Shown here one piece after another: positions 1 to 18,172 of a stretch of DNA of 18,172 nt (positions are counted from its first letter, which is position 1; the number at the start of each line of letters is the position of its first letter). The notes beneath the pieces were generated by a model that saw nothing but the letters and a program-made list of their open reading frames with translations, made no database searches and was not told where the DNA came from. A program made the translations under genes and the position numbers. The DNA comes from an uncultured archaeon (GTDB lineage Archaea > Thermoplasmatota > Penumbrarchaeia > JASLWR01), in NCBI GenBank assembly GCA_964430885.1, contig CAYSHM010000035.1, positions 1-18,172 on the forward strand, read 5' to 3'.

Positions 1-502
1 TATTGTTATAATGAATATTTTGGTTACTGGAGGTTAATTCTCGGGCGGGCTCTTATAAGTAGTTTATGATTTAATTGATTCCATTACGAAGAATTAATTT
101 ATAATTATTATATTAATTACGAATAATTAAAAATATTACTGTTAGATAATATTTTCTCAAAACAATTCCCTGCGATCTTATGTTCATAAAATAAAAATGG
201 ACCGAAGGGAGTTCAGGGATTAGATTTAAAAATTTTGTTGAATGTTTATCGAAATCACAGTGAATGAGATTTCTCCTTGACATTTACTAGAAACATTTAT
301 TATTCATCAAATTCTAATATATGAACACAAAACATATTGGCCTTTGTTAGTTGAAAAATGCAACTAGGATGAATACCTGATAGATATAAGCTGAGTTTCA
401 TTTTATACCTGTAAAAAGAAAAATTGATCACATAAAAATGAAAACAGTAATAGTGTATTGGAACACTATTGAATAAGGATTATCACATGGGAAGGTGAAA
501 AA

Positions 503-3049: not shown

Positions 3050-3141
3050 TTCTGGTAATAATACCATACTCGGGATCATCATAATGGATGGTCTGTTTAC
3101 TGCAACTTATGTAATGAACAGAAGAGAATAATTGAATGGAC

Positions 3142-5826
3142 CTATTCCAGCCTGGAGGATTTCCCCTCCTTAATTTTCCATATGAACTTTCTCAAGATAT
3201 CTATGGGTATGATAACGAAAGAGAATCCAATTATGTATAACCATTCTTTGGGGTGAAGAGGCACGGTTCTAAGCACCTCTCCTCCAAAATAGGTGAATAT
3301 CACTTGGATGATGAAGATAAGAGTAATGATAATAATGAAATTCTTGTTATTGCCAAGATTATCAAAAAGATTCATACATTGAGTTCTGGCGTTGAAGGTA
3401 TTGAAATTGGCTATGAATACAAAGAAGGAGAAGAAAGCGGTAAGAAGGACCTCCTCATCGCCCCTGAACAATTCCTTTATCCAGGGGATCTTCAAAAATG
3501 CCAAACTGAGGACCGCCATTGAGATACCCTGAATAAGTATAGCTACCCACATCTCTCTGGTTATTATTGGAGCATCCTTGGGGATGGGTTCTTCATGCAT
3601 TGTCCTACTAGAAGGATATTCACCGGCAATAGCGATTCCCGCCAGGGTATCCATGATGAGATTTATCCAAAGGAGTTGGGTCATGGTAAGAGGTAGTTCG
3701 TAACCGAAGAAGGGGCCCAGCCAGGCAACAATGATTGCCGCCACATTTATGGATAACTGGAAAACCAGGAATTTTCGAATGGATTTGAACAATGTCCTTC
3801 CGAATAGAATCGCCTGGGTGATGGAAGAGAAGTTATCATCAAGTATTACAATATCGCTGGATTCTTTGGTCATTTCAGTACCGGAACCCATGGCAAAACC
3901 CACATCTGCGTTCTTAACCGCCGGAGCATCGTTTACCCCGTCACCAGTCATACCTACAACCCAATTGAGATCCTTGGCTGCCTTGATCAGACGGCTCTTA
4001 TCCGTGGGCAGGGCTCTTGCTATGACCTGCAGGTTAGGCAGGATTCCCTTCAATTCCTTATCTGACAATTCAGACAGTTCTGCCGATGTAATCACCTTTC
4101 CCACACCTTCATCCAGAAGCCCTACGTCTTTTGCAATGGCCTTGGCAGTTTCCTTGGAATCACCGGTCATCATCACTACCTTTATGCCTGCATCCCTTGC
4201 AAGTTCGATAGCAAGTGGAATCTTCTTTCTTATTTTATCCCTGAGGGCGAACAATCCCACCAGAGTCAATGATGAAGGGAGGGAATGATCCGCGGAGATG
4301 TCTTCTTCACTAAAAGCCACAACTAGAAACCTCATCTCCCTTTTGGATAGATTTACTATCTCTTTTTCAATATCTTCCATATGATCAAGCGGTTGTTTCT
4401 TGCCCTTTTCATCAAGATAGAAATTGCAGTATGGAAGCAGCATCTCCGGAGCACCCTTAACAAGTGTCAGATCGTGTTTACCCTTCACCTGCGCAGCGGA
4501 GAACTTCCTGGAACTGGAAAATGGAATGGTGTCCACCGTTTTTAGACCTTTATGAGCATCCTTTTTCCTATCGAAGCTTGGATACAGAAAATTTAGGATA
4601 GCTCTTTCAGTGGAGTTGGCCCCGAGAAAAGTCGGATTTTTCGGGTCGGAAAGATCGATTATAGCACTGGTATTAAACCTAACAGCATATAATAAAAGTG
4701 AAAGGAAAGGTTTGGGTATTTGGTTCAGTTCGGTATATTTTTTTAAACCTCCGGTAAAGAAATCATAGACTGAGAGAGAACCTTTTGTTATTGTTCCAGT
4801 TTTATCTGTAAAAAGGACTGTGAGGCTTCCTGTTGTCTCGATACCAAGCAATTTTCTTACCAGTACATTCTGCTTCAAGAGTTTCCTCATATTGAGGGAT
4901 AGAACTGCAGCTATCATCATGGGCAGTCCTTCTGGGACTGCAACGACAATAATGATTATTGCTAAAGTGATTGCCAATACTACATGACTTACTATCTCCT
5001 CCGCTTCCAATGCAGCATAAGCGGAAAGACTGCCGACGTCTATGAAAATATGGTATATCATTATAGAAATAGCAATAAGTATAGCGCCAACATACCCGAA
5101 GGTGCTGATCTGCTTTCCAAGGACCGACAGCTTTTTCTGAAGCGGGGATAAACGGTCTTCTGCGGACACAATCTCCTTGATGGTCTTGCCATACATGGTC
5201 TTGTCTCCAACGGCGGTTATCTCAATAACCCCCTTCCCATCAACAATCAAAGCAGAACGTGGAAGGGTGCTCTCTTCCTCATGGGCATGTACGGTATTCT
5301 CACCTTTTTTCTTTTTAGAAATATCCAGAGGATACTTCTTTACCGGACGTGATTCTCCGGTCAAAGGTGCCTGATTGAGTTCAAGCTGTCCTTCCAGTAG
5401 GGTTCCATCGGCGGGCACCATATCTCCAGGCTGTACCAGAACCTTATCCCCTACCACGAGGTCCCTGATCATCACCTTGATGAGATGACCCGATCTAAAG
5501 GTCTTAACAGTGATCGGAGAAGCATCTTCCAATAACTGCTGAAAAGTGGTCTCGTTCCGGTGTTCCGACCATGTTGCAACAAGAATAGCAATAACAACGG
5601 CAATAGCGATCCCGATACCTTCGTACCATGAAGCAAATCCGAGAACTGCCAGGATCATGGTTATTCCAAGGGCGACAATTAGAATGATAATTATAGGATC
5701 CTTGATATTGTTCCAGAGCTTATCAAAGAATGTTTCCCTCTCGAGGGTGGTCACTTCATTGGACCCGTTCTTGGTCCTGGATGCGGCCACCTGCTTTTCG
5801 GTCAAACCCTTGTATTCCATCATCAT
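3142..5826 (-). CDS. Calcium-translocating P-type ATPase, PMCA-like (type IIB-like), about 894 aa
   Basis: Motifs TGES, VAVPEGLP, DKTGT (phospho-Asp), KGAPE, MTGD, MTGDGVNDAP, FQLSINVAA and QLLWINLIMDT. Start moved from the ORF-track GTG at 5889 to ATG at 5826 because SD GGGTGA lies at 5840-5835. Confidence 0.9.
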   Translation of the reverse strand: MMMEYKGLTEKQVAASRTKNGSNEVTTLERETFFDKLWNNIKDPIIIILIVALGITMILAVLGFASWYEGIGIAIAVVIAILVATWSEHRNETTFQQLLEDASPITVKTFRSGHLIKVMIRDLVVGDKVLVQPGDMVPADGTLLEGQLELNQAPLTGESRPVKKYPLDISKKKKGENTVHAHEEESTLPRSALIVDGKGVIEITAVGDKTMYGKTIKEIVSAEDRLSPLQKKLSVLGKQISTFGYVGAILIAISIMIYHIFIDVGSLSAYAALEAEEIVSHVVLAITLAIIIIVVAVPEGLPMMIAAVLSLNMRKLLKQNVLVRKLLGIETTGSLTVLFTDKTGTITKGSLSVYDFFTGGLKKYTELNQIPKPFLSLLLYAVRFNTSAIIDLSDPKNPTFLGANSTERAILNFLYPSFDRKKDAHKGLKTVDTIPFSSSRKFSAAQVKGKHDLTLVKGAPEMLLPYCNFYLDEKGKKQPLDHMEDIEKEIVNLSKREMRFLVVAFSEEDISADHSLPSSLTLVGLFALRDKIRKKIPLAIELARDAGIKVVMMTGDSKETAKAIAKDVGLLDEGVGKVITSAELSELSDKELKGILPNLQVIARALPTDKSRLIKAAKDLNWVVGMTGDGVNDAPAVKNADVGFAMGSGTEMTKESSDIVILDDNFSSITQAILFGRTLFKSIRKFLVFQLSINVAAIIVAWLGPFFGYELPLTMTQLLWINLIMDTLAGIAIAGEYPSSRTMHEEPIPKDAPIITREMWVAILIQGISMAVLSLAFLKIPWIKELFRGDEEVLLTAFFSFFVFIANFNTFNARTQCMNLFDNLGNNKNFIIIITLIFIIQVIFTYFGGEVLRTVPLHPKEWLYIIGFSFVIIPIDILRKFIWKIKEGKSSRLE

Positions 5827-6219
5827 ATCTTTTTTCACCCTTCTTGGAATAAAAATCGTTCTAATAGATAGTCTGTAAGTATTCTGCACACTAGTATATG
5901 CTCTATCTTCCTCGTCATCAATATTCTCTCAATATTGGTATTTGGGGATCTGGATTATTCCTAATGAAATTATTATATCATGATTTTACGGCCCATTTGG
6001 GTAAATTAATCCTGCAAAGAGCATTTATCTATCACCGCAAATAATCCATGGAATAAATGGATAGTTCTGGGCCCCTAGATTTTGGTGGATTGAAATTCTA
6101 CAAGAATAATTTATTATATTTAACAGATTCCACTTATATTACACAGTAAATAATTAAATATTGGATTATTGAATCCATAATCTATCCATCAACTGAAATA
6201 TAATTCAGCGATTAGCCAT

Positions 6220-6256
6220 AAAAAAAAAGAAAAATTTGGGGATTTTCAACTCCCCA
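6220..6256 (-). terminator. Hairpin plus long U-tract terminator downstream of the carbamoyltransferase gene
   Basis: Minus strand reads TGGGGA-gttgaaaa-TCCCCA, then aa and TTTTTCTTTTTTTTT. It begins about 30 nt after the stop codon. Confidence 0.65.
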
Positions 6257-6287
6257 TAAACTTATGAATATCATATTTTGAAAAATA

Positions 6288-7241
6288 TTATTCCATTGCT
6301 CCCAAGACCAGGGCCAAGAGTGCCATTCTCATGACAACGCCGTTGAAAGCTTCAGTCCAGTAGCGGGAATGTCTCGTCTCGTCAACATCCGACGGAAGTT
6401 CGTCCATCCTCGGAAGCGAGTGAAGAATGATAACATCGCTCCTGGCTTTCTCCCGCAGAAGTTTTCGGGTAACCTTATAGTTCTCAGGGGTCAATCCCTT
6501 GTCCTCGGTTGCGTCCTGCCTTGCTTTCGTATAATCAGGCTGAACCACAGGTTCCATGTAGATCATATCCGCATCCCCGATAACCTTCTCCACATGATCG
6601 ACAAAGTCATATCGGGCATTCTTCTTATCCATGATATCGATATATTCCTGGGTCATTGACATTTCAGGGGGGAAAATAAAATTAGTTTCGATATCGAATT
6701 GGGTTATAGCATGGGCCATGGAGTGCATTGTCCTCATTCTGCCGTCGCCTACACAGAGAAAGTTCAATCCGTCAAGTGTGCCCAATTCCTTCCATACGGT
6801 ATATAGATCTGTGAGTACCTGAGTAGGATGCTCACCCCATCCGTCGCCGCAGTTGATGATGGGAACACTTGCCCATTTGGCAGCTTCCGCTGGTGTACCC
6901 TGCTGGAAATGTCTCATTGCTATTACATCCCCGTAATACTCCAGCATCTTCACCGTATCCTTGATGGATTCCTGATAAAAATCCCCTGCACGAGTCATCT
7001 TGGCATCAGAAAAACCTTCCACGGCCCCACCCAATCTATGCATTCCAGCTTCAGTTGCCAGTCTTGTTCTTGTGCTGGGCTGATAGAACGCTGTGACCAA
7101 TGTCTTTTCCTTCAATAGATCACAGTTCTGTCTATTTCTGGCATATGGAGCCAATTCATCTGCGATCTCAAATATTCTCATATAATCTTCTTTCTCGAAA
7201 TCCTTGAGGGACAATATGTCCTTTCCTAGAAAACTTCTCAT
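6288..7241 (-). CDS. Aspartate-carbamoyltransferase-like transcarbamylase (pseudo-ATCase; possibly ureidoglycine carbamoyltransferase-like), 317 aa
   Basis: Carbamoyl-phosphate motifs STRT, RH, HPTQ and HSLPR are present. The ATCase aspartate-binding RxQxER motif is replaced by EPVVQPDY, and the 80s-loop KGE by TRAGDFYQE. SD GAGGTG at 7254-7249. Confidence 0.85.
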   Translation of the reverse strand: MRSFLGKDILSLKDFEKEDYMRIFEIADELAPYARNRQNCDLLKEKTLVTAFYQPSTRTRLATEAGMHRLGGAVEGFSDAKMTRAGDFYQESIKDTVKMLEYYGDVIAMRHFQQGTPAEAAKWASVPIINCGDGWGEHPTQVLTDLYTVWKELGTLDGLNFLCVGDGRMRTMHSMAHAITQFDIETNFIFPPEMSMTQEYIDIMDKKNARYDFVDHVEKVIGDADMIYMEPVVQPDYTKARQDATEDKGLTPENYKVTRKLLREKARSDVIILHSLPRMDELPSDVDETRHSRYWTEAFNGVVMRMALLALVLGAME

Positions 7242-7545
7242 TCATCTACACCTCAAATCTTACATACTTATTCCGAATAATTCCGAACCATGATTATTGT
7301 TTCAGTATCTAATAATCGTGTTTCCATTCCTTTTAGAAACCGGTCTTGGGGATAGGCCCTCATGCTTTATTAACTTATTTTCAAAAGAAAATTAAAAGTA
7401 ATTTAAAAGGTACCGTAATTGAAAAAAATACCTATAAAGGAACAATATGCCTTTAAGAATAATCTGCGGAGCTCGACTGTGCTGCAGATAATGGAAAAAA
7501 CGGACCTGTGAACTAACATAAGAAATTGTCTATAAATTCACATCA

Positions 7546-9132
7546 TTAGGACCTCTGGAAAAAATCATCCAATATTTTACTGCCATCGCTTATCATACTT
7601 TCAGTTAATGAACCATACTTTCTCTCGATAACAGTCAGGTATTCCTCATATAGATCTATTTTCACAGGCAGAGCAAAGGGTAGTGAGATAGAGGTTATCA
7701 AGGCTTCCCCAGGCATCAGCATCTGAACTTCGGCTCCGAGACCGGACATATCCTGCTTGGCGGATTGTTTCAGCATATCACGATCACGTTTGTCACCCAA
7801 ACCGAGTATGAAGAGAGTGTTGAATTGGGAAAGTATCTCCTCGTCAATTAACTTCGGCTGCTGGGATATGGCGCAAAGACCGACCCTGAACTTCCTTCCT
7901 TCCCTGGCTATCTGGGTGTAGATATTCCTTCTTACACCCTGATTTCCGAACCCCTGTCTTCCCAGAACCCTCTGTGCTTCCTCCATAGTGATAAGTACGG
8001 GTAATAGATCTGTAAAGTTTTCTGTTCTGGTGTACTGCCGTTTGTGATATCTGAAAACTGACCGGGCTATGACTATGCTTATAAGCAGTTCCTCTGCCTC
8101 TCCCATGGAGGATGTATCCACAAGTACAGTCTTTCCCTCCTGAAGATAGGATATTATCTTTTTTGTTATGGTTATCTCTGGGTCTCTATGCAGAAGATTG
8201 TACGAGAAAAGGTTCTTCAGTTTTCTTCTTATCACTCCCAGGGTCGAATCATAAGTGCCTTCAAGATGAAAGCTCAATTCCTCCATGGGTTTGTCATGAA
8301 GATTCGTTACCCATTCATCACCATATAATCTTTTGGCCGATCTAAGAGCATCCCTCTGGGGACCCGTGAACTCATAAAGCTGTTCCAGGTCATCAACCTC
8401 GATCTCCTTGGAACTGACCTTGATCGGCTCATAAGTGCCGGAAAGCTTCCTAGCTGAAAAAACTCGGAGATTTTTCCTTGCGAGTGGATGATGAATCAAT
8501 CCCTTTCGATCTTGGCCACCTCCATCGAAATATTCCCCGTGTGGATCGAAAATCAATAATCCCGTTATCCCTTTCTCAATACATGATGCAGACAAACGTT
8601 TCATCAGATTGGATTTACCCATGCCTGTTGTGGCGAAAACCCCTACATGGGATGGCAGATCCTTAGAATGAACACCTACAGGAATATTTACCTCCCTCTC
8701 GCCGCTCCTGAGGAGCCCTACCTTGATATCCCCCATGAAATCCTCAAGAAGTTTCAGGTCGTTATCATCGGCTCTTCTAACCCCGCCGAAATGGGCGGGC
8801 ATGGTCTTCGGTTTCTTGAAAATACCGTTCTCCATATAACCCAGAGGCTTGCATACCCCCACCTTATAGAGTCTTCTTTCCCTATCGTGCAGTTCAAACT
8901 CCAATTTCCCCTGTTCGAAATTGATCATATTTCCTGCAGTCCTTGCCGCCCAATCCGGGTCTGCTGCCTCGAAGCCCATCCTGATATCGAATATTCTAAG
9001 CAGGAATTCCCTTCTGGTTGCGGGGTCCATTCCCATGAGTATTTCCCCGAGAAAAATATCCTGGCCGAAGGCTGCCCTGAATCGGATCTCCCTTACGTTC
9101 TCACCTATTATCCTGCCTATGTTCCTGATCAA
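7546..9132 (-). CDS. herA: HerA-family (DUF87/FtsK-HerA) ATPase/DNA translocase, 528 aa
   Basis: N-terminal HAS-barrel-like region, Walker A FATTGMGKSN, Walker B ITMEEAQR, arginine-finger region IAREGRKF, and ISQQP. TTG start with SD GGTGA at 9142-9138. Adjacent to nurA. Confidence 0.88.
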   Translation of the reverse strand: MIRNIGRIIGENVREIRFRAAFGQDIFLGEILMGMDPATRREFLLRIFDIRMGFEAADPDWAARTAGNMINFEQGKLEFELHDRERRLYKVGVCKPLGYMENGIFKKPKTMPAHFGGVRRADDNDLKLLEDFMGDIKVGLLRSGEREVNIPVGVHSKDLPSHVGVFATTGMGKSNLMKRLSASCIEKGITGLLIFDPHGEYFDGGGQDRKGLIHHPLARKNLRVFSARKLSGTYEPIKVSSKEIEVDDLEQLYEFTGPQRDALRSAKRLYGDEWVTNLHDKPMEELSFHLEGTYDSTLGVIRRKLKNLFSYNLLHRDPEITITKKIISYLQEGKTVLVDTSSMGEAEELLISIVIARSVFRYHKRQYTRTENFTDLLPVLITMEEAQRVLGRQGFGNQGVRRNIYTQIAREGRKFRVGLCAISQQPKLIDEEILSQFNTLFILGLGDKRDRDMLKQSAKQDMSGLGAEVQMLMPGEALITSISLPFALPVKIDLYEEYLTVIERKYGSLTESMISDGSKILDDFFQRS

Positions 9133-9230
9133 TTAAATCACCATTTTTTATTATCATCAAGCTGCATTTTCAAATTCATCATCATCATGATCGTCAGCAT
9201 TATTATGATCGTTATTTCCAAATAACATTT

Positions 9231-10241
9231 CTAAGTTCCCCTATCAAGAATATCATGAAAATCCTGGATAAGATAACGCCATTGACTGCCGGACATTCCA
9301 GTTTCCAGGGCTGTCCGTTCCAATTCATTGACCATATCTTCAGATTCAGCCTTGGTTATGGCAACCTCATTATGCACCTTGACAAGAGGATAAGGATAAC
9401 CCGGATATCCCGCGTCACGACAGTATCTTGAAAGCACGCCCAGATACTTCGAGGGATCATTCCCCGGGAACAAGTCCGCTCTGAATACGAACTGGGATAA
9501 TGGGTGAAGTTTTACTGCCGTAACCAAAGGTGGTCGGGATGAAATATTATTTCCTCTGAAAATATCCTGACCAAAGGTCACAGGTACATTCAGGTACCAT
9601 TTCTTTTTATGGACCATCCGATTTGACCAGTATTGAATATGGGGCAGCAATGGTATCCCTTTCAAGCTGAGAGAGGTGGATTTGGAGAGCCCTATTAGCT
9701 TAATATTTCTATCTTCAGCTATGCCGAGTATATCTGCCATTTTGTTCTCCAGATGAGGTATTCCAGGCATTAACGTACCGTCAACAAGCAGCATGGAGCC
9801 TGCGGGCAGGTCTGAAACCAAGCTCTCGATCATTTCAAGTTCCTTGGCTTCCCTTACCAAGGATAGTACCGTTTCCGGGTCCTTAACTTTATTGGTCAAC
9901 CGGGGAATTAGCTTGCAATGGGTGAGAAAATCCCGGTTCAGATCGGGTTTTCTGATAAATATGGGGGCCCCCGCCTCCTCCCTTCGGTCCACCTCATTTC
10001 CGTCATCAAAAATAATAGCTAGAACCCTCTGGAACCCTACAATGAAGTTCGGGGCTTTCAAAATTACCGATGAAGAACCATCAACAGCAGCTGTCAGATG
10101 AGGGCCCTTATGGGTTTTAAACACCTGAAAATCGTCTTCTGAAAGGGGAGGAAGCACATTCTGTGAATATACTGATAACAAGGTCTCTGCAATAGACCTT
10201 GACCAATCTCCAACACCCTTGGCAGTCTGCTCCTGGCTCAT
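9231..10241 (-). CDS. nurA: NurA-family nuclease, about 336 aa
   Basis: AAVDGSS, LLVDGTL, IGLSKST and C-terminal GYPYPLVKVHNEV are NurA motifs. Directly upstream of herA. ATG at 10241 preferred over TTG at 10253 because of the TATA-box spacing. Confidence 0.85.
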   Translation of the reverse strand: MSQEQTAKGVGDWSRSIAETLLSVYSQNVLPPLSEDDFQVFKTHKGPHLTAAVDGSSSVILKAPNFIVGFQRVLAIIFDDGNEVDRREEAGAPIFIRKPDLNRDFLTHCKLIPRLTNKVKDPETVLSLVREAKELEMIESLVSDLPAGSMLLVDGTLMPGIPHLENKMADILGIAEDRNIKLIGLSKSTSLSLKGIPLLPHIQYWSNRMVHKKKWYLNVPVTFGQDIFRGNNISSRPPLVTAVKLHPLSQFVFRADLFPGNDPSKYLGVLSRYCRDAGYPGYPYPLVKVHNEVAITKAESEDMVNELERTALETGMSGSQWRYLIQDFHDILDRGT

Positions 10242-10265
10242 TGAAGAAAGCAAAAAGCATGTTGT

Positions 10266-10273
10266 TATTTAAA
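10266..10273 (-). promoter_or_regulatory. Putative archaeal TATA box (TTTAAATA) for a leaderless nurA-herA transcript
   Basis: Lies about 25 nt upstream of ATG 10241, which has no SD motif. The spacing fits archaeal leaderless transcripts. Confidence 0.45.
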
Positions 10274-10426
10274 TGTTGTTCTGAGGTGAAGAAAAGTAAG
10301 AGTGAATCTGTTCGCTATGTTGCCTAATGATCTTTCGTTTTCCCCTAAACTGCAATATGAAAGTTGCATCTATAGCACTCTTTGCTTTTTCATTTAAAAG
10401 AATAAAACAGAGTTCATCCGACATAA

Positions 10427-10464
10427 TTTTAAAAATGATATTGTCGTTTAGGTGGCCCGGGTGA
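10427..10464 (+). promoter_or_regulatory. Putative TATA box (TTTTAAAAA, 10427-10435) and SD (GGGTGA, 10459-10464) of the redox operon
   Basis: TATA spacing places a transcription start just before the SD, which is 5 nt upstream of ATG 10470. Confidence 0.45.
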
Positions 10465-10469
10465 TGAAT

Positions 10470-12440
10470 ATGTCGGTCCGAGGCAATGAAGAACAGGAGG
10501 ATGCTGAGGAGTTCAAGCGCCAAGAGCGTATCTTTGATCTCTGCGGCTGCACCACCTGTCCCGGAAAGGACAATTGTCAGTTGAAGGATGTGATAACTTA
10601 TCTTGATATGGACCTGTCCGCTTTCCGGATCAGCGAAAGGGAGATCCCACTTGAGAACGGTGACCCATTCTTTGACAGGGATTATGACCTCTGTATATTA
10701 TGCGGACGCTGTGTAAGGGTTTGTCATGACATCAGGGGCAATGGAGCAATATCTCTTATCAACCGAGGGTCTAAGGCAAGGGTAGGGACAGCCTTTGGGG
10801 AGGGGCATCTAGAGGGGCCCTGCATGTTCTGCGGAGCCTGTGTGGACGTATGCCCTACCGGAGCTCTGAGCATTAAGGAAAGACGATATTATGGTCAGGC
10901 GGATAGAACGGTGAAATCGACATGCAGCCTGTGCGGGCTGGGCTGTTCTATGGATCTAATGGTGAAATGGAAAAGGGTTGTAGATGCAGAACCAAATATT
11001 GAAGGATGGAATAAAGGGCAGGGCTGCGTACTGGGAAGATTCTGCCTCCCTCAAATGGATCGGATTGCTCCTAGGCTGAAAACTCCATTGATAAGAAAGG
11101 AAGGAGTGTTAGTCCCTGTGGGATGGGATGAAGCGATAGAGGAAACATGTTCCAGACTTGCCGAGTTCAATCCCGGGGACATAGGATTCATATTCTCCAG
11201 GGACCTGACCAATGAAAGTTCAGAGCTCCTTGGCCGGATATCCATCAAAGGATTCCCCGGTTCAAGCAGGTATTTGGATTCGCCCCTTGCTGAATTGATG
11301 CAGAGATATTATTTCAAAATACCGACCAATTCGGTTAGCGCTCAATTTCAGTTTGCCGACAAAACTCAAAAAGACGGCATGATCCTTATAGTAGGCGGGA
11401 GACCGGACCTGACCCACGGACAGCTGATGGCGGATCTGAAAAGGGCCAAGAACAATGGTACTGCAATAGTATATGTCGGATTGCATCCCTATGTCAATAC
11501 CGGCAAGGAAACCATCAATATTGACAGCCGCCAATACTCCGTTGTATTGCTGTCAATTCTAAATAACATGATAAAGGTAAAAGTGGAGGGCGAGGATTTT
11601 GACCTTGATTCAGATGTTGACAGCCAGGGCGAACTGAACAGACTCAGTAGCTTTCTTGACGGTCATTTAAATGGCTCGGATACTGGATCATTTGATGAAA
11701 TCAGCACCATATTGGAGAAGTGTGCGGATAATATCACCATTTTCATGGGAGTGGATATTCTAAACGAAGAAAAAGAAGGGGATCCTGCATTAACAATAAC
11801 TGCTGCTATGGATATTCTTGAACTTTCAGGCAATTCCGGCAGCCTATTGTTCCTATTAGAGGGGAATTCAAGGGGAGTTATTGAAAATATTGTTCTTCAG
11901 GATGCAGATGATTTCGGATCTGGCGATGTGGCTGGAAAAAAGGTAATCTTCACAACTGCCATGGATGCCGAGATCCCTGACTCCGCTGAACTTGTAATAC
12001 TGCAGAATCCGTTTGAAGGAAAATTGACCGATATGTCCGATATCATTCTACCAGCGGCATCCCTTACTGAAACCCATGGAACCATGACTACCCTATACGG
12101 AAAAAAAGCGGTAATCAATGAAGCAGGTCAAGCTCCGGGTACGGCAATGCAGGACAAATGGATATTTGATAGGATAATTGCCAAACTAGGTATTGAGTTG
12201 GAACTGCACAGCGGTGAAAAGGTAGATAATGATCAGCAGAATATTGAGGAGACGGGGAAAGAAAGGGGATCATTCAAAAGCCTTGTTCTCCAGAAACTGG
12301 CAGAATATCCTGATCATAAATTTGATGTAAGAATCGTAAGAAGCGAGCCCTTCACTTTTAGAGGAATTAAGATCCAGAACATTCTTCAGGACCTTGAGGT
12401 TTTTCTTAACCACCGTATGAATCCAAAGGGGGGTGATTGA
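10470..12440 (+). CDS. NuoG/FdhA-like iron-sulfur subunit lacking the N-terminal [2Fe-2S] domain, with a degenerate molybdopterin domain (about 656 aa)
   Basis: Begins with CGCTTCPGKDNCQL, then 2x[4Fe-4S] motifs CILCGRCVRVC and CMFCGACVDVCP, then the Mo-domain cluster motif TCSLCGLGC...GC, plus RLKTPLIR, WDEA and DIILPAA...E. No catalytic Cys/Sec-His motif is visible. Start at ATG 10470 based on the SD. Confidence 0.85.
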   Translation: MSVRGNEEQEDAEEFKRQERIFDLCGCTTCPGKDNCQLKDVITYLDMDLSAFRISEREIPLENGDPFFDRDYDLCILCGRCVRVCHDIRGNGAISLINRGSKARVGTAFGEGHLEGPCMFCGACVDVCPTGALSIKERRYYGQADRTVKSTCSLCGLGCSMDLMVKWKRVVDAEPNIEGWNKGQGCVLGRFCLPQMDRIAPRLKTPLIRKEGVLVPVGWDEAIEETCSRLAEFNPGDIGFIFSRDLTNESSELLGRISIKGFPGSSRYLDSPLAELMQRYYFKIPTNSVSAQFQFADKTQKDGMILIVGGRPDLTHGQLMADLKRAKNNGTAIVYVGLHPYVNTGKETINIDSRQYSVVLLSILNNMIKVKVEGEDFDLDSDVDSQGELNRLSSFLDGHLNGSDTGSFDEISTILEKCADNITIFMGVDILNEEKEGDPALTITAAMDILELSGNSGSLLFLLEGNSRGVIENIVLQDADDFGSGDVAGKKVIFTTAMDAEIPDSAELVILQNPFEGKLTDMSDIILPAASLTETHGTMTTLYGKKAVINEAGQAPGTAMQDKWIFDRIIAKLGIELELHSGEKVDNDQQNIEETGKERGSFKSLVLQKLAEYPDHKFDVRIVRSEPFTFRGIKIQNILQDLEVFLNHRMNPKGGD

Positions 12441-12441
12441 A

Positions 12442-12945
12442 TTGACCGAAGGAAGATCTGAACATATGAACAAATGTGAAGATGAAAGGATCGTGGTAGA
12501 AAATATACTTCGCAGCAGGGAAGGGTCCAGAAAGAACCTAATCCCGCTTCTACAGGATATCCAGGAAGCTTTGGGATACATATCCCCTGAAGCAGTAAGA
12601 ATTATCGCGGAAACTACCGGTATGACTGCCAGCTACATATTCGGCGTGGCTACCTTCTATGCCCAATTCAGATTTCAACGACCCGGTAAATACCAGATAA
12701 GGATATGTGAAGGTACTGCCTGCCATGTCAGAGGTACCCAGGAGATCATATCCGAGGTCAAGAGACGGCTGAACATAGAGAAAGGTGAGACCACAAAGGA
12801 CGGCCTTTTCAGTCTGGAGACCGTCGCCTGTATGGGCTGCTGCGCTTTGGCTCCTGTGATGATGGTAAACGAGGATGTATACGGAGAATGCACACCTGAA
12901 AAGGCTGGCCGGATCATTGAGGATTACTCCATGGAGGCGATCTGA
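12442..12945 (+). CDS. nuoE: NuoE/HydC-like [2Fe-2S] thioredoxin-fold subunit
   Basis: LIPLLQDIQEALGYI, GVATFYAQF, CEGTACH...CMGCCALAP. TTG at 12442 follows SD GGGGGTGA. ATG at 12466 is an alternative start. Confidence 0.92.
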   Translation: MTEGRSEHMNKCEDERIVVENILRSREGSRKNLIPLLQDIQEALGYISPEAVRIIAETTGMTASYIFGVATFYAQFRFQRPGKYQIRICEGTACHVRGTQEIISEVKRRLNIEKGETTKDGLFSLETVACMGCCALAPVMMVNEDVYGECTPEKAGRIIEDYSMEAI

Positions 12946-12946
12946 G

Positions 12947-14866
12947 ATGACATTGGAAGAACTAAGGTCTGAAGCAGAGATCAAGATAAGGGAACTTACG
13001 AAGTGCGGAAAACCTGTGATTTATTTCGGCGCTGCATCATGCGGAAGGGCCGCAGGCGTCCTAGAAACCATATCTGCAGCGAGGGAGGCACTTGACGAAG
13101 TAAATGCGGAAGCGGAGCTCGTGGAGGTAGGCTGTATTGGAATGTGCTGTTACGAGCCCTTGGTCTATCTATCTGTAACTGGAAGCCAACCCCTTTGCTT
13201 CGGTAATGTGACACCTTCTAGGATGAAAAAAATCATCTCCAGCTTCATTGTGAACAATAATTCCCTGGATGATATGGATAACAAGACATATCCATTGGGG
13301 GTATTGGACCTGGACGGATATGAGAATGTGGTAGGTATTCCGCCTTTAACCCAACATCCAATGCTGAAACCCCAGGTGAGATTGGTCCTCAGAAACTGCG
13401 GAAAAATCGACCCCACGGATATCAAGGATTATGTATCAAATGACGGGTACAGGGCTCTGGAGAAAATATTGAAAATGGAACCTGAAGAAGTTATCGATGA
13501 GATAAAAAGATCAGGTTTGGGGGGAAGAGGTGGAGCCGGGTTCCCTACCGGTCTTAAATGGGAGTTATGCAGGAATAACCAAAGTGATTTCAGATACCTT
13601 ATATGCAATGCCGACGAGGGCGATCCTGGAGCTTTCATGAACAGGTCCCTTCTCGAGAGTGATCCGCATGCGGTGCTTGAGGGCATGCTCATTGCGGGAT
13701 ATGCAATTGGGTGCCGGGAAGGCTATATTTATATAAGAGCTGAATATCCACTGGCGATAAAACGGCTGAACACTGCCATAGAACAGATGAAGAAGCACAA
13801 TCTATTGGGTCAGAACATCCTTGACAACGGATTCTCTTTTGACATAAACATAAAGAAAGGTGCTGGGGCTTTTGTGTGCGGTGAGGAAACAGCCCTGATG
13901 GCCTCTATTGAAGGAAAAAGAGGCATGCCCAGGCCGAGACCGCCCTTTCCAGCCCAATCCGGACTATGGGGGGAACCCACCAATATAAACAACGTCGGAA
14001 CACTGGGAAGCGTTGCAAATATCATAAGGATGGGTGGCGTTGAATTTGCCCGGTTCGGTTCTGAAACCGCTAAGGGAACCAAGACATTTTCCCTTGTAGG
14101 CAAGATAGAAAGAACTGGTCTTATCGAGGTCCCGCTGGGAACCTCTCTGGGCGAGATCATTTTCGACATCGGCGGCGGAATCAAGGGCGGAAAGAAATTC
14201 AAAGCAGTTCAGACCGGGGGCCCTTCCGGAGGCTGTATTCCCGCTTCGAAGATAGATATTTCCGTTGACTATAAATCCCTAAGCGAAGTGGGCTCAATAA
14301 TGGGTTCCGGGGGCATAGTGGTAATGGATGAAGATACATGTATGGTGGATATCGCTAAGTTCTTCCTCACCTTCACCCAGGATGAATCATGCGGAAAATG
14401 CCCCCCATGCCGTATCGGAACCAAGAGAATGCTGGAAATACTTATAAGGATAACTGAAGGAAGAGGACGTCCTGAAGATATAGATCAGCTGATCAAGCTC
14501 TGCGATACCATAGGAAAAGCATCCCTCTGCGGTCTAGGGCAGACTGCACCAAATCCAGTATTGACCACTCTGACCTATTTCAGGGACGAATATGAAGCAC
14601 ACATCTATACTAAAAGATGTCCTGCAAAGGTCTGCAAGGAACTCTATGAATTCCACATTGATCCTGAGACCTGCATAGGCTGCGGACAATGCTCGAAGGC
14701 CTGCCCCGTGAATGCCATAACAGGAGAAAGAAAAGAAGTTCACATAATCGATAAAGATGAATGCATAAAGTGCGGTGTATGCTTTGCAGTGTGTCCGAAA
14801 AAGGTAAGGGCTGTAAAGAAGATCGATAGATATCCAAAGACTGATGAAGAAGGTGATCTGGAATGA
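12947..14866 (+). CDS. nuoF: NuoF/HydB-like FMN- and NAD(H)-binding subunit, long form with N-terminal thioredoxin-like domain and C-terminal 2x[4Fe-4S] domain (about 639 aa)
   Basis: GRGGAGFPTG, CNADEGDPGAFM, FVCGEETAL, GGPSGG, ESCGKCPPCR...LC, and C-terminal CIGCGQCSKACP and CIKCGVCFAVCP. ATG at 12947 with SD GGAGG at 12933-12937. Confidence 0.93.
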   Translation: MTLEELRSEAEIKIRELTKCGKPVIYFGAASCGRAAGVLETISAAREALDEVNAEAELVEVGCIGMCCYEPLVYLSVTGSQPLCFGNVTPSRMKKIISSFIVNNNSLDDMDNKTYPLGVLDLDGYENVVGIPPLTQHPMLKPQVRLVLRNCGKIDPTDIKDYVSNDGYRALEKILKMEPEEVIDEIKRSGLGGRGGAGFPTGLKWELCRNNQSDFRYLICNADEGDPGAFMNRSLLESDPHAVLEGMLIAGYAIGCREGYIYIRAEYPLAIKRLNTAIEQMKKHNLLGQNILDNGFSFDINIKKGAGAFVCGEETALMASIEGKRGMPRPRPPFPAQSGLWGEPTNINNVGTLGSVANIIRMGGVEFARFGSETAKGTKTFSLVGKIERTGLIEVPLGTSLGEIIFDIGGGIKGGKKFKAVQTGGPSGGCIPASKIDISVDYKSLSEVGSIMGSGGIVVMDEDTCMVDIAKFFLTFTQDESCGKCPPCRIGTKRMLEILIRITEGRGRPEDIDQLIKLCDTIGKASLCGLGQTAPNPVLTTLTYFRDEYEAHIYTKRCPAKVCKELYEFHIDPETCIGCGQCSKACPVNAITGERKEVHIIDKDECIKCGVCFAVCPKKVRAVKKIDRYPKTDEEGDLE

Positions 14867-15609
14867 TAACCATTAATGGTACAGAATATGAGTTCATCGA
14901 AGGCTTCACTGTTATGGAAGCCGCCGAGCAGGCTGGGCATTACATTCCAAAACTCTGCTCTCATCCATTACTGCCTCCCTTCGGAGCATGCAGGTTGTGC
15001 CTGGTCAAGATCCAAGGGATGAGAGGATATCCGACTTCATGCACTACACCTCTCAGGGACGGCATGGTGATCACCACAGAGGACCATGAGCTCAGATCTC
15101 TGAGGCGAAGCATAATGGAGCTCATTCTATCCGAACACCCCAATCGATGTTTCGGATGCGCCGCCTGTGTTTTGGATTGTGTGGTATGCGCATATCTGGA
15201 TACTGATGAGGAGGTCAGACCCAGATCCATAATGGAAAGGCTGGACATGAACGAGAACCCCCTGGATGGAAAGGAAATTTGGTGCTGTGCCGCCTGCCAT
15301 AAATGCGCAGACGGATGTCCTCACGGATCAAATCCTCAACAGACCTGCTCACTGCTCAAGGAGAGGGCGCTGAAGGAGGGAAAAGTTCCAAAAGGGATAA
15401 TGGCAATGTCAAAAAACATTATAGAAAGCGGTTATTCAGTCCCAATAAATCCCAATGTTGACCGCCAAAGAGAGAGAAGCGGATTGCCTGCATTAAATCG
15501 GCCGAATTCCCGGGAACTCATGAGCATCTTGAAGAGAGCTGGTTCCGCGGAACTTTTCGGATTTGAAAAAGATAAGGACGGAGAAGAAGAAGAGGTGGTG
15601 GCAGAATGA
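14863..15609 (+). CDS. Fusion protein: NuoG/HydA N-terminal [2Fe-2S] domain plus heterodisulfide reductase subunit C (HdrC)-like domain, 248 aa
   Basis: Residues 1-93 carry IPKLC32...GAC43RLC46LV...TSC60TTP...RRSIMELILSEH92P. Residues 96-248 carry C96xxC99xxC102xxxC106, RPRSIM, EIWCC142xxC145xxC148xxxC152P and an HdrC-like tail RERSGLP. ATGA overlaps with both neighbouring genes. Confidence 0.85.
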   Translation: MITINGTEYEFIEGFTVMEAAEQAGHYIPKLCSHPLLPPFGACRLCLVKIQGMRGYPTSCTTPLRDGMVITTEDHELRSLRRSIMELILSEHPNRCFGCAACVLDCVVCAYLDTDEEVRPRSIMERLDMNENPLDGKEIWCCAACHKCADGCPHGSNPQQTCSLLKERALKEGKVPKGIMAMSKNIIESGYSVPINPNVDRQRERSGLPALNRPNSRELMSILKRAGSAELFGFEKDKDGEEEEVVAE

Positions 15610-16502
15610 AAAGCTTTGCCTATTTTCCAGGCTGCGTTATTCCCGTGAACTATCCTCATATAGAGAAGATCACCCTGGACATGCTGAAAAGATTCAATAT
15701 CGAACTCCTTCACCTAGAAGGTTTCTCCTGCTGTCCGGAACCTATAGAGTTCGCCTCTCTTCACCCCCTTACCACACTGGGTTTCTCTGCAAGGAACCTC
15801 GCCATCGCCCAGGAAACCGGATTGGACATATTAACAGCATGCAACGGATGCACCTTGAGCCTGAAGGATGCTGCTGATAAGCTGGAAAAGGACCCCGAGT
15901 TACTCGGGAAGGTAAATGAAGTTCTCCAGGATACTCCTTTCAGGTACAACGGCGGTGTAAAGGTATATCATTTTTTAGAGGTTTTCAAAGATATTATAGG
16001 AAGAGATAAACTAGCTGCTTCAGTAACCAGGCCGCTGACAGGAGTCCGAATCGCCACGCATACCGGATGCCATCTGCTGTCCCCTCCTGAATTGATAGGA
16101 TTCGAAGCAGATCCCGGAACACCTGTGGAGTTTGACCAGTTGATAGAGGCAATAGGCGGGATACCGGTGGATTACGCGACCAAAACCCTCTGCTGCGGAA
16201 TTTCTCACAGTCTAGGTGGAACACCAAAATCCAGCTTCCTAATGGTAAAGGACAAGATTGTTGACGTTGACAGCAACCGAGTTGACTGCATGGCTGTCGG
16301 CTGTCCTTCATGCCTTTCTCAGCTGGATAAGGGACAGCACATAGTTGCCCGCAAATTCAAACTGGACATATCCATACCCGTGCTCTACTTCACCCAGCTA
16401 TTAGGTCTGGCCCTTGGTTTGGACCTCAAAGAGGTAGGCTACATGAAGAACAGGGTAAAGAACAAGGAGTTCCAGCAGAAAATTGAAGGCTTGGGTAATT
16501 GA
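15606..16502 (+). CDS. hdrB: Heterodisulfide reductase subunit B (two CCG domains), 298 aa
   Basis: C10-x31-C42C43-x35-C79xxC82 and C155-x40-C196C197-x35-C233xxC236. Also YFPGC, ARNLAIA, HTGCH, QLDKGQ and IPVLYFTQLLGLALG. Confidence 0.93.
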   Translation: MKSFAYFPGCVIPVNYPHIEKITLDMLKRFNIELLHLEGFSCCPEPIEFASLHPLTTLGFSARNLAIAQETGLDILTACNGCTLSLKDAADKLEKDPELLGKVNEVLQDTPFRYNGGVKVYHFLEVFKDIIGRDKLAASVTRPLTGVRIATHTGCHLLSPPELIGFEADPGTPVEFDQLIEAIGGIPVDYATKTLCCGISHSLGGTPKSSFLMVKDKIVDVDSNRVDCMAVGCPSCLSQLDKGQHIVARKFKLDISIPVLYFTQLLGLALGLDLKEVGYMKNRVKNKEFQQKIEGLGN

Positions 16503-16540
16503 AATGTTGCATTCAGTATTGAATTATTTTCATATATTAT

Positions 16541-17989
16541 CTACTGGCTATCTTTGATTGCTTCATCTATTAGTTTTTCACCCTGAGAAAGCAGAAAATC
16601 AGCTCTTTTCCTGCTCATGGCATCGGAATATACCCGGAACAAAGGCTCGGTCCCGGACGGTCTGACCAATAACCAAGAATTATCATTATATATTCTCTTG
16701 AGTCCGTCAATGGTTATGTCCATCTTTTTATCCTTTGCAAGGTTCACATCCTCGTTGAACCTTTTCACAACTGAAGCATAGACTGAATCCTTGGATTGGT
16801 CCGAGCATCTTCTCTGGCCTTTGGCCTGATAGAAATCAGGGAAATCGTCCGCCAATTCAGCCAAAGTCATCTTCCTTTCAGCCATTATCTGCAGCAGGAA
16901 AAGAGTGGCAAGATTGCCGTCGCACCAGTGAACATCCTTGGCAAAATAATATTTTCCGCTCTCCTCATAGGCATATACTGCCTTATCCCCGTGTTCCATG
17001 AGTGCCCGCTCAGTATCAGGCTGGCCAATCCTACAGTATGCCATCTTCACCTCGTATTTCTCTGCGAGATAATCTATTAGACCTGAAGAGTTCACCGGGG
17101 TTATGCATACCGGATCGTCTACTTTCTCATCGGCGCATTTCTCAAAGATCCATTTTCCGAAAATGGCGCCTACTACATCCTCTGACACTACTTTGCCTTC
17201 TTCATCAATGAAAACGACCCTGTCAGCATCAACGTCAGTTGCAGCAGCAAGTTTAGCATTATGCTTCCGAAGGGCATTTATCGTAGAGTCCAGAGTGGTC
17301 GCCCTGGGCTCGGCAGAGCGGTCAGGGTTCCCTTTTCGGATATTATTTATAGCTGCAACCTTGATACCGCATCTCTTGACCATGGCAGGAAGAATATCCA
17401 CAGCAGTTCCGTTTCCCGGATCCAGTACTATCCTGAAATTCTTTTCAAGGGTTAATTCTGCAATAAATTCCCGATCGATAAGGGATAGTGCATGCTCCAT
17501 ATATCTCTCCATCCTCCCGGTCACAACCTTTCGTATACCAATATCATTCATGACCGAACGATCATCGGGGGACCCACATTCTGATTGACTGAAGTACAAT
17601 TCCTCAACTTCCAGAGCTTTTTTATCACTGATATAGCATGCATTGGAATCCATATAGATGAGGCCGATCCTATTTGGCGGCATATGGGAGCCAGTCACCA
17701 TAACTCCTCCCTTTCCGCCGAGCTCGATGATCGACAGAGCCAGGGCAGGAGTGGGCATTATTCCACAATCCAGAACATCCAGACCTGCAGAATTGAGACC
17801 TGCGGTGATCGCCTGGGTAAGCATCTGAGCACCGAACCGGGTATCCCTGGCCATTACAACCATTCCCTTTCCGCCCAACCATTTTCCGAAGGCATAGGAT
17901 AGTTCCATTGCCAGCATGGGAGTAATTTCAGTATTCGTTTCACCTCTTACACCTGATGTTCCGAACAATTTTGGTTTCTTCTCTGACAT
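16541..17989 (-). CDS. Alpha-D-phosphohexomutase family protein (phosphomannomutase/phosphoglucosamine mutase-like), 482 aa
   Basis: LFGTSGVRG, RDTR, PTP, phospho-Ser motif TGSHMP, metal loop DVDADR, YEESG and RPSGTEP. SD GGTGA at 17998-17994. Confidence 0.9.
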   Translation of the reverse strand: MSEKKPKLFGTSGVRGETNTEITPMLAMELSYAFGKWLGGKGMVVMARDTRFGAQMLTQAITAGLNSAGLDVLDCGIMPTPALALSIIELGGKGGVMVTGSHMPPNRIGLIYMDSNACYISDKKALEVEELYFSQSECGSPDDRSVMNDIGIRKVVTGRMERYMEHALSLIDREFIAELTLEKNFRIVLDPGNGTAVDILPAMVKRCGIKVAAINNIRKGNPDRSAEPRATTLDSTINALRKHNAKLAAATDVDADRVVFIDEEGKVVSEDVVGAIFGKWIFEKCADEKVDDPVCITPVNSSGLIDYLAEKYEVKMAYCRIGQPDTERALMEHGDKAVYAYEESGKYYFAKDVHWCDGNLATLFLLQIMAERKMTLAELADDFPDFYQAKGQRRCSDQSKDSVYASVVKRFNEDVNLAKDKKMDITIDGLKRIYNDNSWLLVRPSGTEPLFRVYSDAMSRKRADFLLSQGEKLIDEAIKDSQ

Positions 17990-18172
17990 AGTATCACCGA
18001 TAGAAATGTGTTTCCAGATTTAAATCTATACAGTTTTAGCCATACCCGTAATGAGATATATTGTTATCTATAAAATGTGAAATTGTTCCAGGGCACAATT
18101 AATTTTATATAGTATTGAATTTATTAATTTCTTCGCCTTTACCCGACTATTTCGGTAATGATCTTATTACAG

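Follow-up and report, generated by a model that had tools for sequence, protein, structure and literature searches.

A BfuA-type subunit split in two, permuted and fused to HdrC in an uncultured archaeon of the Penumbrarchaeia

In an uncultured archaeon (GTDB lineage Archaea; Thermoplasmatota; Penumbrarchaeia; JASLWR01), the A subunit of what appears to be a bifurcating (Bfu) enzyme, a NuoG/BfuA-type protein that its unsplit relatives make as one chain, is encoded as two polypeptides in permuted order. The genes lie on contig CAYSHM010000035.1 of GenBank assembly GCA_964430885.1, whose positions 1 to 18,172 (forward strand) were analysed and are called the window here; its source genome is called G000. 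The first of five genes (gene 1) carries most of the subunit, and the N-terminal [2Fe-2S] domain, A1, is found in the fourth (gene 4), where it runs directly into HdrC. Fission, permutation and fusion of this BfuA-type subunit are real and, so far, unique to this organism. As an account of the whole, we are slightly more inclined to accept than to doubt that a split BfuA and an A1-HdrC fusion make up one Bfu-type NADH/ferredoxin-dependent disulfide reductase without HdrA.

Results

The case for fission rests on the relatives of the two halves. An earlier note on this DNA, made from the letters alone, had proposed gene fission with reordering, and with the alignment and half-trees suggested there the closest relatives, P0020, P0021 and P0022, turned out to be common to both halves. 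For the trees, 112 full-length relatives (P0020-P0138 minus seven shorter than 680 amino acids) were aligned and a FastTree tree was built per half; best matches were ranked against the 138 proteins gathered by then. In that ranking the three proteins are the top three matches of gene 1 and stand fourth, first and third, respectively, for residues 1-110 of gene 4. Residues 1-100 of gene 4 are 70, 69 and 68% identical to residues 1-100 of P0021, P0022 and P0020, and gene 1 residues 24-649 share 35-37% identity with residues 118-716 of the same three. The gene 1 tree places it in a four-row clade with P0020-P0022 (Shimodaira-Hasegawa-like support 99), and in the gene 4 N-part tree, which has 99 columns and is poorly resolved, the nearest rows are P0021, P0089, P0020 and P0022. 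All eight loci taken from related genomes read nuoE-nuoF-nuoG, with nuoG unsplit and both halves in one frame of ~780-870 amino acids, and no paralogue of any of the five proteins was found in G000 at 1e-6. Because both halves share these unsplit relatives, nuoG is intact in all eight loci and G000 holds no second copies, a NuoG/BfuA-type fission with reordering is well supported by the sequence comparisons.

The break falls between two tandem cluster motifs, and the remaining ~630 codons are now the first gene of the operon. These motifs, Hx3Cx2Cx5C and, 14-16 residues on, Cx2Cx5C, are present in 111 of the 112 unsplit relatives; gene 4 retains H92, C96 and C99 of the first, and gene 1 retains C27, C30 and C36 of the second. 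The earlier picture of a single His-ligated cluster cut in two is thus not supported, since the His belongs to the first motif and what gene 1 keeps is the second. The NuoG-model matches of genes 4 and 1 overlap at profile positions 95-98, inside the cluster motif, and solved chains differ in whether they align to one motif or to the other, a pattern that fits tandem copies of one motif. Among the solved chains aligned, the doubled motif was seen in none. The doubled motif spans residues ~92-130 of the relatives, and its two remnants lie at 15136-15159 and 10542-10577 of the window. In the relatives the second copy is accompanied by a conserved His, H207 in P0021 and H113 in gene 1. Compared with a one-chain NuoG/BfuA, the parts lie on two proteins and the His motif lacks its third Cys (Cys105 in the relatives): about 20 residues were lost at the break, and the relatives' residues ~101-117, which include this invariant Cys, have no counterpart in gene 1 or gene 4. 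For that reason residues 1-99 of gene 4 joined to gene 1 do not rebuild a full chain, which the earlier note had expected them to do approximately. A search of the window DNA for remnants of the lost nuoG and hdrC pieces, at E-values (E) up to 50, yielded nothing but noise and gene 3's Fer4 domain.

The other half of the arrangement is the fusion. Gene 4 matches Fer2_4 with residues 2-74, positions 1-98 of the NuoG model with residues 2-99, and the HdrC model TIGR03290 with residues 95-212; at the junction the HxxxCxxC of NuoG passes directly into the CxxCxxCxxxC of HdrC. Both HdrC motifs (C96-x2-C99-x2-C102-x3-C106 and C142-x2-C145-x2-C148-x3-C152) agree with solved HdrC (5odc_C residues 33-180; 7bkb_C) at every Cys in the alignment, which reaches gene 4 residue 239, so the C-terminal region is present, whereas the first ~32 residues of HdrC are missing. 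The TIGR03290 score, 57.3 bits, lies under the equivalog cut-off of 160. On these alignments gene 4 consists of NuoG residues 1-~95 followed in frame by HdrC from about its residue 33, the join falling inside a CxxC. The N-terminal domain and His missing from gene 1 do occur here, as the earlier note had said, with H92, part of SEHPNRC96FGC99, lying 4.4 kb downstream from where gene 1 starts.

Misassembly does not account for the arrangement. In two separately assembled runs, contigs of 28,088 and 35,011 nucleotides show 0 differences over 9500-16600, and small contigs from two further runs cover 10441-10684 (the gene 1 start), 14734-14951 (the gene 3/4 junction) and, in run X4, 15015-15193 (the fusion point); all four runs come from one marine metagenome study, and two are possibly the source of this assembly. 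Nor was the arrangement seen elsewhere. A word search of a 5.8-billion protein collection, made among proteins close to gene 4 in length, gave no match covering more than 63% of it, and the same kind of search with the HdrC part (residues 95-248) gave nothing at E ≤ 0.001. A scan of 1.84 billion representatives gave 10,756 matches, and the best 150 all stop at or before gene 4 residue 165; among the matches listed from 40 related genomes, with the 29 weakest excluded, none besides that of G000 spans residues 1-248. The exact-sequence clusters contain this organism's contigs alone. Short representatives (≤200 amino acids) that match the gene 4 N-part were considered as stand-alone A1 proteins; most end inside motifs or in unrelated sequence, and they were read as fragments. 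A literature search returned no paper on a NuoG-HdrC fusion or an HdrBC-type Bfu enzyme, within a scope that excluded supplements such as the Bfu clade tables of PMC9304861, which may list some.

In gene 1 the Pfam scan returned a Fer4 dicluster, Fer4_Nqo3, Molybdop_Fe4S4 and Molybdopterin; it gave no match for Fer2_4 or PF10588 at E ≤ 0.01, and none for PF01568, the C-terminal Molydop_binding barrel. Its cluster motifs are the second CxxCx5C, two of the ferredoxin-type [4Fe-4S] kind and Molybdop_Fe4S4, and it also has a molybdopterin-like domain of the pterin-less kind. It matches the NuoG model TIGR01973 over profile positions 95-600, and this late beginning, together with the missing Fer2_4 match, bears out the observation that it lacks the [2Fe-2S] domain. 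The NuoG scores of gene 4 (93.9 bits) and gene 1 (133.6 bits) are both far under the cut-off of 470, and gene 1 falls well below that of formate dehydrogenase alpha (TIGR01591, 112.7 bits against 666.25). Its predicted structure (predicted template modelling score 0.80; mean predicted local distance difference test, pLDDT, 73.6) matches the fold of FdhA, NuoG and BfuA chains, including 9bov_A and 7t30_A. When residues 1-110 of gene 4 were docked in a model with residues 1-250 of gene 1, the score was 0.52, which is weak support, the best of three controls scoring 0.00; the runs share at least 70% of contacts, and the pLDDT of the partner is at least 75. Of 80 solved complexes 58 passed the docking mark, as did 2 of 110 mismatched pairs, and at scores ≤0.60 it was passed by only 7 of the 80 and by both mismatches, counts that hold roughly for a pair docked, like this one, with its own alignments. 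The pass may also reflect memory or likeness, because the fold of the two halves has been solved many times as one chain (NuoG/FdsA/BfuA).

The remaining three genes encode BfuC-, BfuB- and HdrB-like proteins. Gene 2 is predicted to be BfuC, a thioredoxin-like [2Fe-2S] protein (PF01257, E 6.6e-53, residues 23-165); its start may be ATG 12466 instead of GTG 12433. The longest open reading frame (ORF) of gene 3 opens at 12875 and overlaps gene 2 by 71 nucleotides, and since relatives align only from about residue 25, ATG 12947, two bases past the gene 2 stop, is its likely start. Gene 3 contains Complex1_51K, NADH_4Fe-4S and two Fer4 domains at residues 594-644. It aligns with the bifurcating B subunit 9bov_B over residues 26-616 of 639 (E 7e-232), and also with 9n5u_B, 8oh5_B, 7t2r_B and HydB, whereas the non-bifurcating NuoF and FdsB align just to the core, at ~144-552. 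By these alignments the NuoF-like gene 3 is of the Bfu (bifurcating) type, with extra domains flanking the NuoF core on both sides, as expected of a BfuB, in which they are a thioredoxin-like domain at the N-terminus and 2x[4Fe-4S] at the C-terminus. Gene 5, the sole CCG protein found in G000, shares its Cys columns with the HdrB of seven relatives. Its first CCG motif (15726-15734, residues 41-43) reads CCP, as it does in L023 and L024, and CCG in the five others. The HdrB equivalog model TIGR03288, which implies a CoB-CoM heterodisulfide substrate, scores 257.8 bits against a cut-off of 345.15, and McrA (MCR_alpha) had no match in G000, a genome 91.6% complete.

The five genes are closely packed on the plus strand at 10470-16502, with stops and starts that overlap or abut throughout in our ORF reading, and form a predicted single operon (Table 1). 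Among the sequencing runs listed as containing this stretch there was none of RNA. Re-reading the sequence upheld the earlier description of the start of gene 1, its Shine-Dalgarno-like and TATA-like elements and its N-terminus, MSVRGNEEQEDAEEFKRQERIFDLC25GC27TTC30PGKDNC36QL from ATG 10470; alternative starts are ATG 10464 (658 amino acids, on record as P0139) and GTG 10452. The TATA-like stretches sit in the 210-nucleotide divergent intergenic region between nurA, on the minus strand, and gene 1. Upstream lies a divergent HerA (DUF87)-NurA pair (7546-10253, minus strand), and beyond it a P-type cation ATPase and an ornithine/aspartate carbamoyltransferase; downstream and converging is a phosphoglucomutase-family gene. 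None of these flanking genes has a match in the eight related loci. An ORF of 848 amino acids at 503-3049 on the plus strand matched no Pfam family at E ≤ 1e-5.

Table 1. Positions of the five genes, their diagnostic segments and putative upstream signals in the window
Feature	Position	Strand	Description
Putative TATA-like AT-rich stretches	10393-10400; 10427-10435	+	TTTAAAAG; TTTTAAAAA; sequence reading
Putative Shine-Dalgarno-like AGGTGG	10450..10455	+	8 nt before ATG 10464, 14 nt before ATG 10470; sequence reading
Gene 1	10470..12440	+	NuoG/BfuA-like, without [2Fe-2S] A1 domain; 656 aa from ATG 10470
Retained second CxxCx5C motif and extra Cys25	10542..10577	+	C25-G-C27-T-T-C30-PGKDN-C36
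Gene 2	12433..12945	+	NuoE/BfuC-like thioredoxin-like [2Fe-2S] protein
Gene 3	12947..14866	+	NuoF/BfuB-like, bifurcating type; N-terminal extra domain, FMN/NADH site, C-terminal 2x[4Fe-4S]
Gene 4	14863..15609	+	248 aa; A1 [2Fe-2S] domain and HdrC
Gene 4 residues 1-95	14863..15147	+	NuoG/BfuA N-terminal A1 domain; C32, C43, C46, C60, SEH92PNR
Fusion junction	15136..15180	+	H92-PNR-C96-FG-C99-AA-C102-VLD-C106
Gene 4 residues 96-248	15148..15609	+	HdrC, first cluster Cys through C-terminus; all 8 Cys, both motifs
Gene 5	15606..16502	+	HdrB-like, two CCG domains (PF02754 twice)

Discussion

If the operon is taken at face value, the products of genes 1-5 would assemble into a single enzyme. That it has five subunits, gene 1 contributing the A2 junction that connects A1 to the HdrC/HdrB arm, strikes us as about evenly balanced. 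Electrons from NADH and the flavin mononucleotide (FMN) in gene 3 would pass through B1 to A1 in the N-terminal domain of gene 4, then into gene 1, through the A2 junction cluster and its Cys25/27/30/36 site, back to the two HdrC clusters in the C-terminal domain of gene 4 and on to HdrB (gene 5), which would reduce a disulfide-type substrate; with no McrA found, CoM-S-S-CoB is an unlikely candidate for it. The BfuBC core would be where ferredoxin couples, and the A4/A5 clusters of gene 1, with its pterin-less domain, would be a side branch. The ancestral His-ligated cluster would have been replaced by the first HdrC cluster, and the gene 1 site would be all-Cys through C25. The most specific form of the proposal, an HdrA-free NADH/ferredoxin disulfide reductase with HdrC set on A1 at a hot-spot for NfnL-type inserts, gene 1 as an obligatory bridge in a wire running from gene 4 to gene 1 and back to gene 4, and an all-Cys site through Cys25, is one that we put forward only tentatively and would not ourselves favor. 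The branching Fe-S wire of the earlier note, one arm leading to HdrC/HdrB and the other into the A-subunit clusters, agrees with the Y-shaped junction reported at cluster A2 (PMC12018979).

The closest comparison is with the Nfn-Bfu enzymes (NfnABC/StnABC), represented here by those of Caldicellulosiruptor saccharolyticus (Csac; 9BOV/9BP5), Thermococcus sibiricus (9N5U) and Sporomusa ovata (8OH5). In their NfnA subunit an NfnL-like module is inserted between the N-terminal A1 domain and a pterin-less NuoG/Fdh-like domain. Electrons are described as following the path from flavin adenine dinucleotide (FAD) through A7, A6, A3, A2 and A1 to B1; A2 lies at the Y junction, and the branch A2-A4-A5 is a dead end (PMC11829005; PMC12018979). 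Our operon is like them in having a BfuBC core, with gene 3 matching 9bov_B, 9n5u_B and 8oh5_B almost end to end; in an A1 domain that ends in SEHxxxC and is followed, at the same graft site, by a foreign redox module before the A3-type motif; in a Cys-only motif after the module; and in a pterin-less NuoG/Fdh-like domain with the A2 junction. In the alignment, Csac NfnA (9bov_A) reads ...SEHRGDC, then the NfnL-like insert, then CLECGCMDYFECQL, which gives Cx2CxCx5C at the aligned place. It is unlike them in that HdrC (with HdrB), and not an NfnL-like FAD domain, has been grafted, and in that the chain of gene 4 stops after the module, the rest of BfuA being made as its own protein from the first gene of the operon. 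Among the many third-substrate modules given in the accessible part of Schut et al. (PMC9304861), none is of the HdrBC type. The same source proposes a Type 4 Rub-Bfu (BfuBC plus rubrerythrin), which resembles the enzyme suggested here in its BfuBC core and in the high-potential third substrate that it would reduce through a non-standard partner; Type 4 has no BfuA, whereas G000 keeps all of its parts except the last Cys of the first motif and the linker.

Among its own kin, the split subunit resembles the unsplit NuoG-like proteins (P0020-P0022 and ~110 others, archaeal and bacterial) in the identical cluster Cys of the retained parts and in the lack of PF01568, and differs from them in that they are one chain of 700-800 amino acids with two tandem motifs. 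No hdrCB was found within the eight related nuoEFG loci. In five of them (L012-L015 and L018), two overlapping ORFs of ~295 and ~470 amino acids come after nuoG; the pair scanned, that of L014, is NfnS-like (DHODB_Fe-S_bind) and NfnL-like (Fer4_20 plus Pyr_redox_2). A homologous NfnS/NfnL-like pair stands alone on another contig of G000 (C25:28879-31177, minus strand). HdrBC is encoded with NuoEF-type subunits, and with a NuoG-type [2Fe-2S] domain fused to another redox module, in a second place: the same-family relative L027 (G003:C4:99500-111500), whose minus-strand ORFs 551-9661 run hdrC-hdrB-nuoE'-nuoF'-[1076 aa]-mvhD-frhB-like. There nuoE' has a short FAD-type N-part, and the 1076-residue protein reads as Fer2_4, Fer4, an HdrA-like part and Fer4. 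Judged by its domains, this is a Bfu-plus-HdrA arrangement, paralogous to that of G000 and to be compared with Bam-Bfu and HdrABC-MvhAGD. It differs in having HdrA-like FAD and MvhD modules, and its [2Fe-2S] domain is 40% identical to that of gene 4, compared with 68-70% for the nuoEFG-type relatives. In G000 the L027 queries for the HdrA fusion and MvhD gave partial matches or none, and the operon itself contains no HdrA-like gene and so is not of the HdrABC type. HdrC-, HdrB- and 2Fe-2S-type matches also lie within ~6 kb of one another in several other relatives of the class.

Several observations weigh against the five-subunit enzyme with gene 1 as its bridge. A high-potential disulfide fits Bfu energetics poorly, except in plain confurcation. 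Because Type 4 Bfu enzymes exist without BfuA (PMC9304861), gene 1 need not be required. Gene 1 retains 85% of the columns conserved at ≥90% (62 of 73), below every one of 48 relatives (mean 97%, minimum 89%). Its path-length ratio of C-part to N-part, measured to the nearest relatives, is 3.3-4.3, compared with a median of 2.0 (5-95%: 1.1-3.1) over 5,989 pairs of relatives, which means that, measured against its partner half, it has diverged at ~1.6-2 times the rate usual in the family; where relatives with an N-part identity of 65-70% average 66% in the FeS part and 41% in the Mo-like part, G000 has 51% and 25%. In the model of gene 1 the FeS region (residues 1-140) reaches a pLDDT of only ~43-73 per ten-residue block. 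As to the proposed four-Cys site, 58 of 111 relatives have no fourth Cys and in 0 of 111 is there a Cys at -2 like C25, so such a site is not a family rule. Finally, with a single organism known, there is no comparative sign that selection keeps the arrangement. Much of this is what an otherwise unlikely alternative draws upon, namely that gene 1 is a leftover, drifting or in a new role, and that the working complex consists of BfuBC (genes 2 and 3), A1-HdrC (gene 4) and HdrB (gene 5), with A1 passing electrons directly to HdrC: the faster evolution of gene 1, its loss of conserved columns and the existence of Type 4 all speak for it, and the A2-A4-A5 branch of Csac NfnA has itself been called a likely remnant (PMC11829005). 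However, the 656-codon frame of gene 1 is still open at ~36% identity to its nearest kin, all 15 cluster Cys that are invariant in the relatives are retained, as are 40 of the 41 columns invariant among the 48, and gene 1 leads a tightly packed operon. Even with a share of conserved columns below that of all 48 relatives, we read it as being under changed but real constraint. Moreover, in solved Bfu enzymes A1 reaches A3 only via A2, which here would be in gene 1 (PMC12018979), and the halves dock, weakly and with the reservation about fold likeness made above.

The tandem motifs bear on how the clusters are ligated. The earlier note had offered two possibilities, a [4Fe-4S] cluster shared by two chains, with His92 of gene 4 completing C27/C30/C36 of gene 1 in trans, and an all-Cys cluster using C25. 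For the shared cluster it can be said that H92 is kept in SEHPNRC and is invariant in the 112 relatives, and that the two halves may still dock; yet the His of the relatives has its own adjacent Cx2Cx5C, the motif of gene 1 is the second copy and has no His at the equivalent position, C96 and C99 after H92 belong, as Cys one and two, to a complete HdrC ferredoxin motif, and the linker of 17-20 residues between the motifs of relatives has been lost. We regard a His supplied in trans as very improbable, and most simply His92 would be a relic. The all-Cys possibility fared better in part. The second motif of the relatives has only three invariant Cys, but a fourth lies nearby in 53 of the 111 (at -10 in 29, -13 in 19 and -3 in 5), and the aligned motif of Csac NfnA is Cys-only; what finds no precedent among the relatives is the -2 position of C25 itself. 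An all-Cys site using C25 in gene 1 is thus plausible. That split and fusion are both artefacts of metagenome assembly or binning deserves almost no credence: the assembly is a 44-contig one from a marine metagenome, and the four runs of one study that confirm it may include its source, but the long contigs of two separately assembled runs are identical, the small contigs of the others span the fusion point, the junction of genes 3 and 4 and the beginning of gene 1 with no differences and no joints reported, and GC content, overall and at third codon positions, is even across the operon and the flanking genes.

Bfu enzymes are thought to have been built by the shuffling of modules onto a constant BfuBC core, and in solved Nfn-Bfu structures a foreign module directly follows A1. 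The present operon would be an instance in which that position has received another module, HdrC/HdrB, and in which the A subunit has survived as two chains with its gene order permuted. If the complex is active, it would join HdrBC chemistry to NADH and ferredoxin without HdrA, and it would be a ready-made split system for asking which of the BfuA clusters (A2, the A3-type site and the A4/A5 branch) electron transfer needs. It also draws attention to the double-motif site present in more than 100 unsplit relatives.

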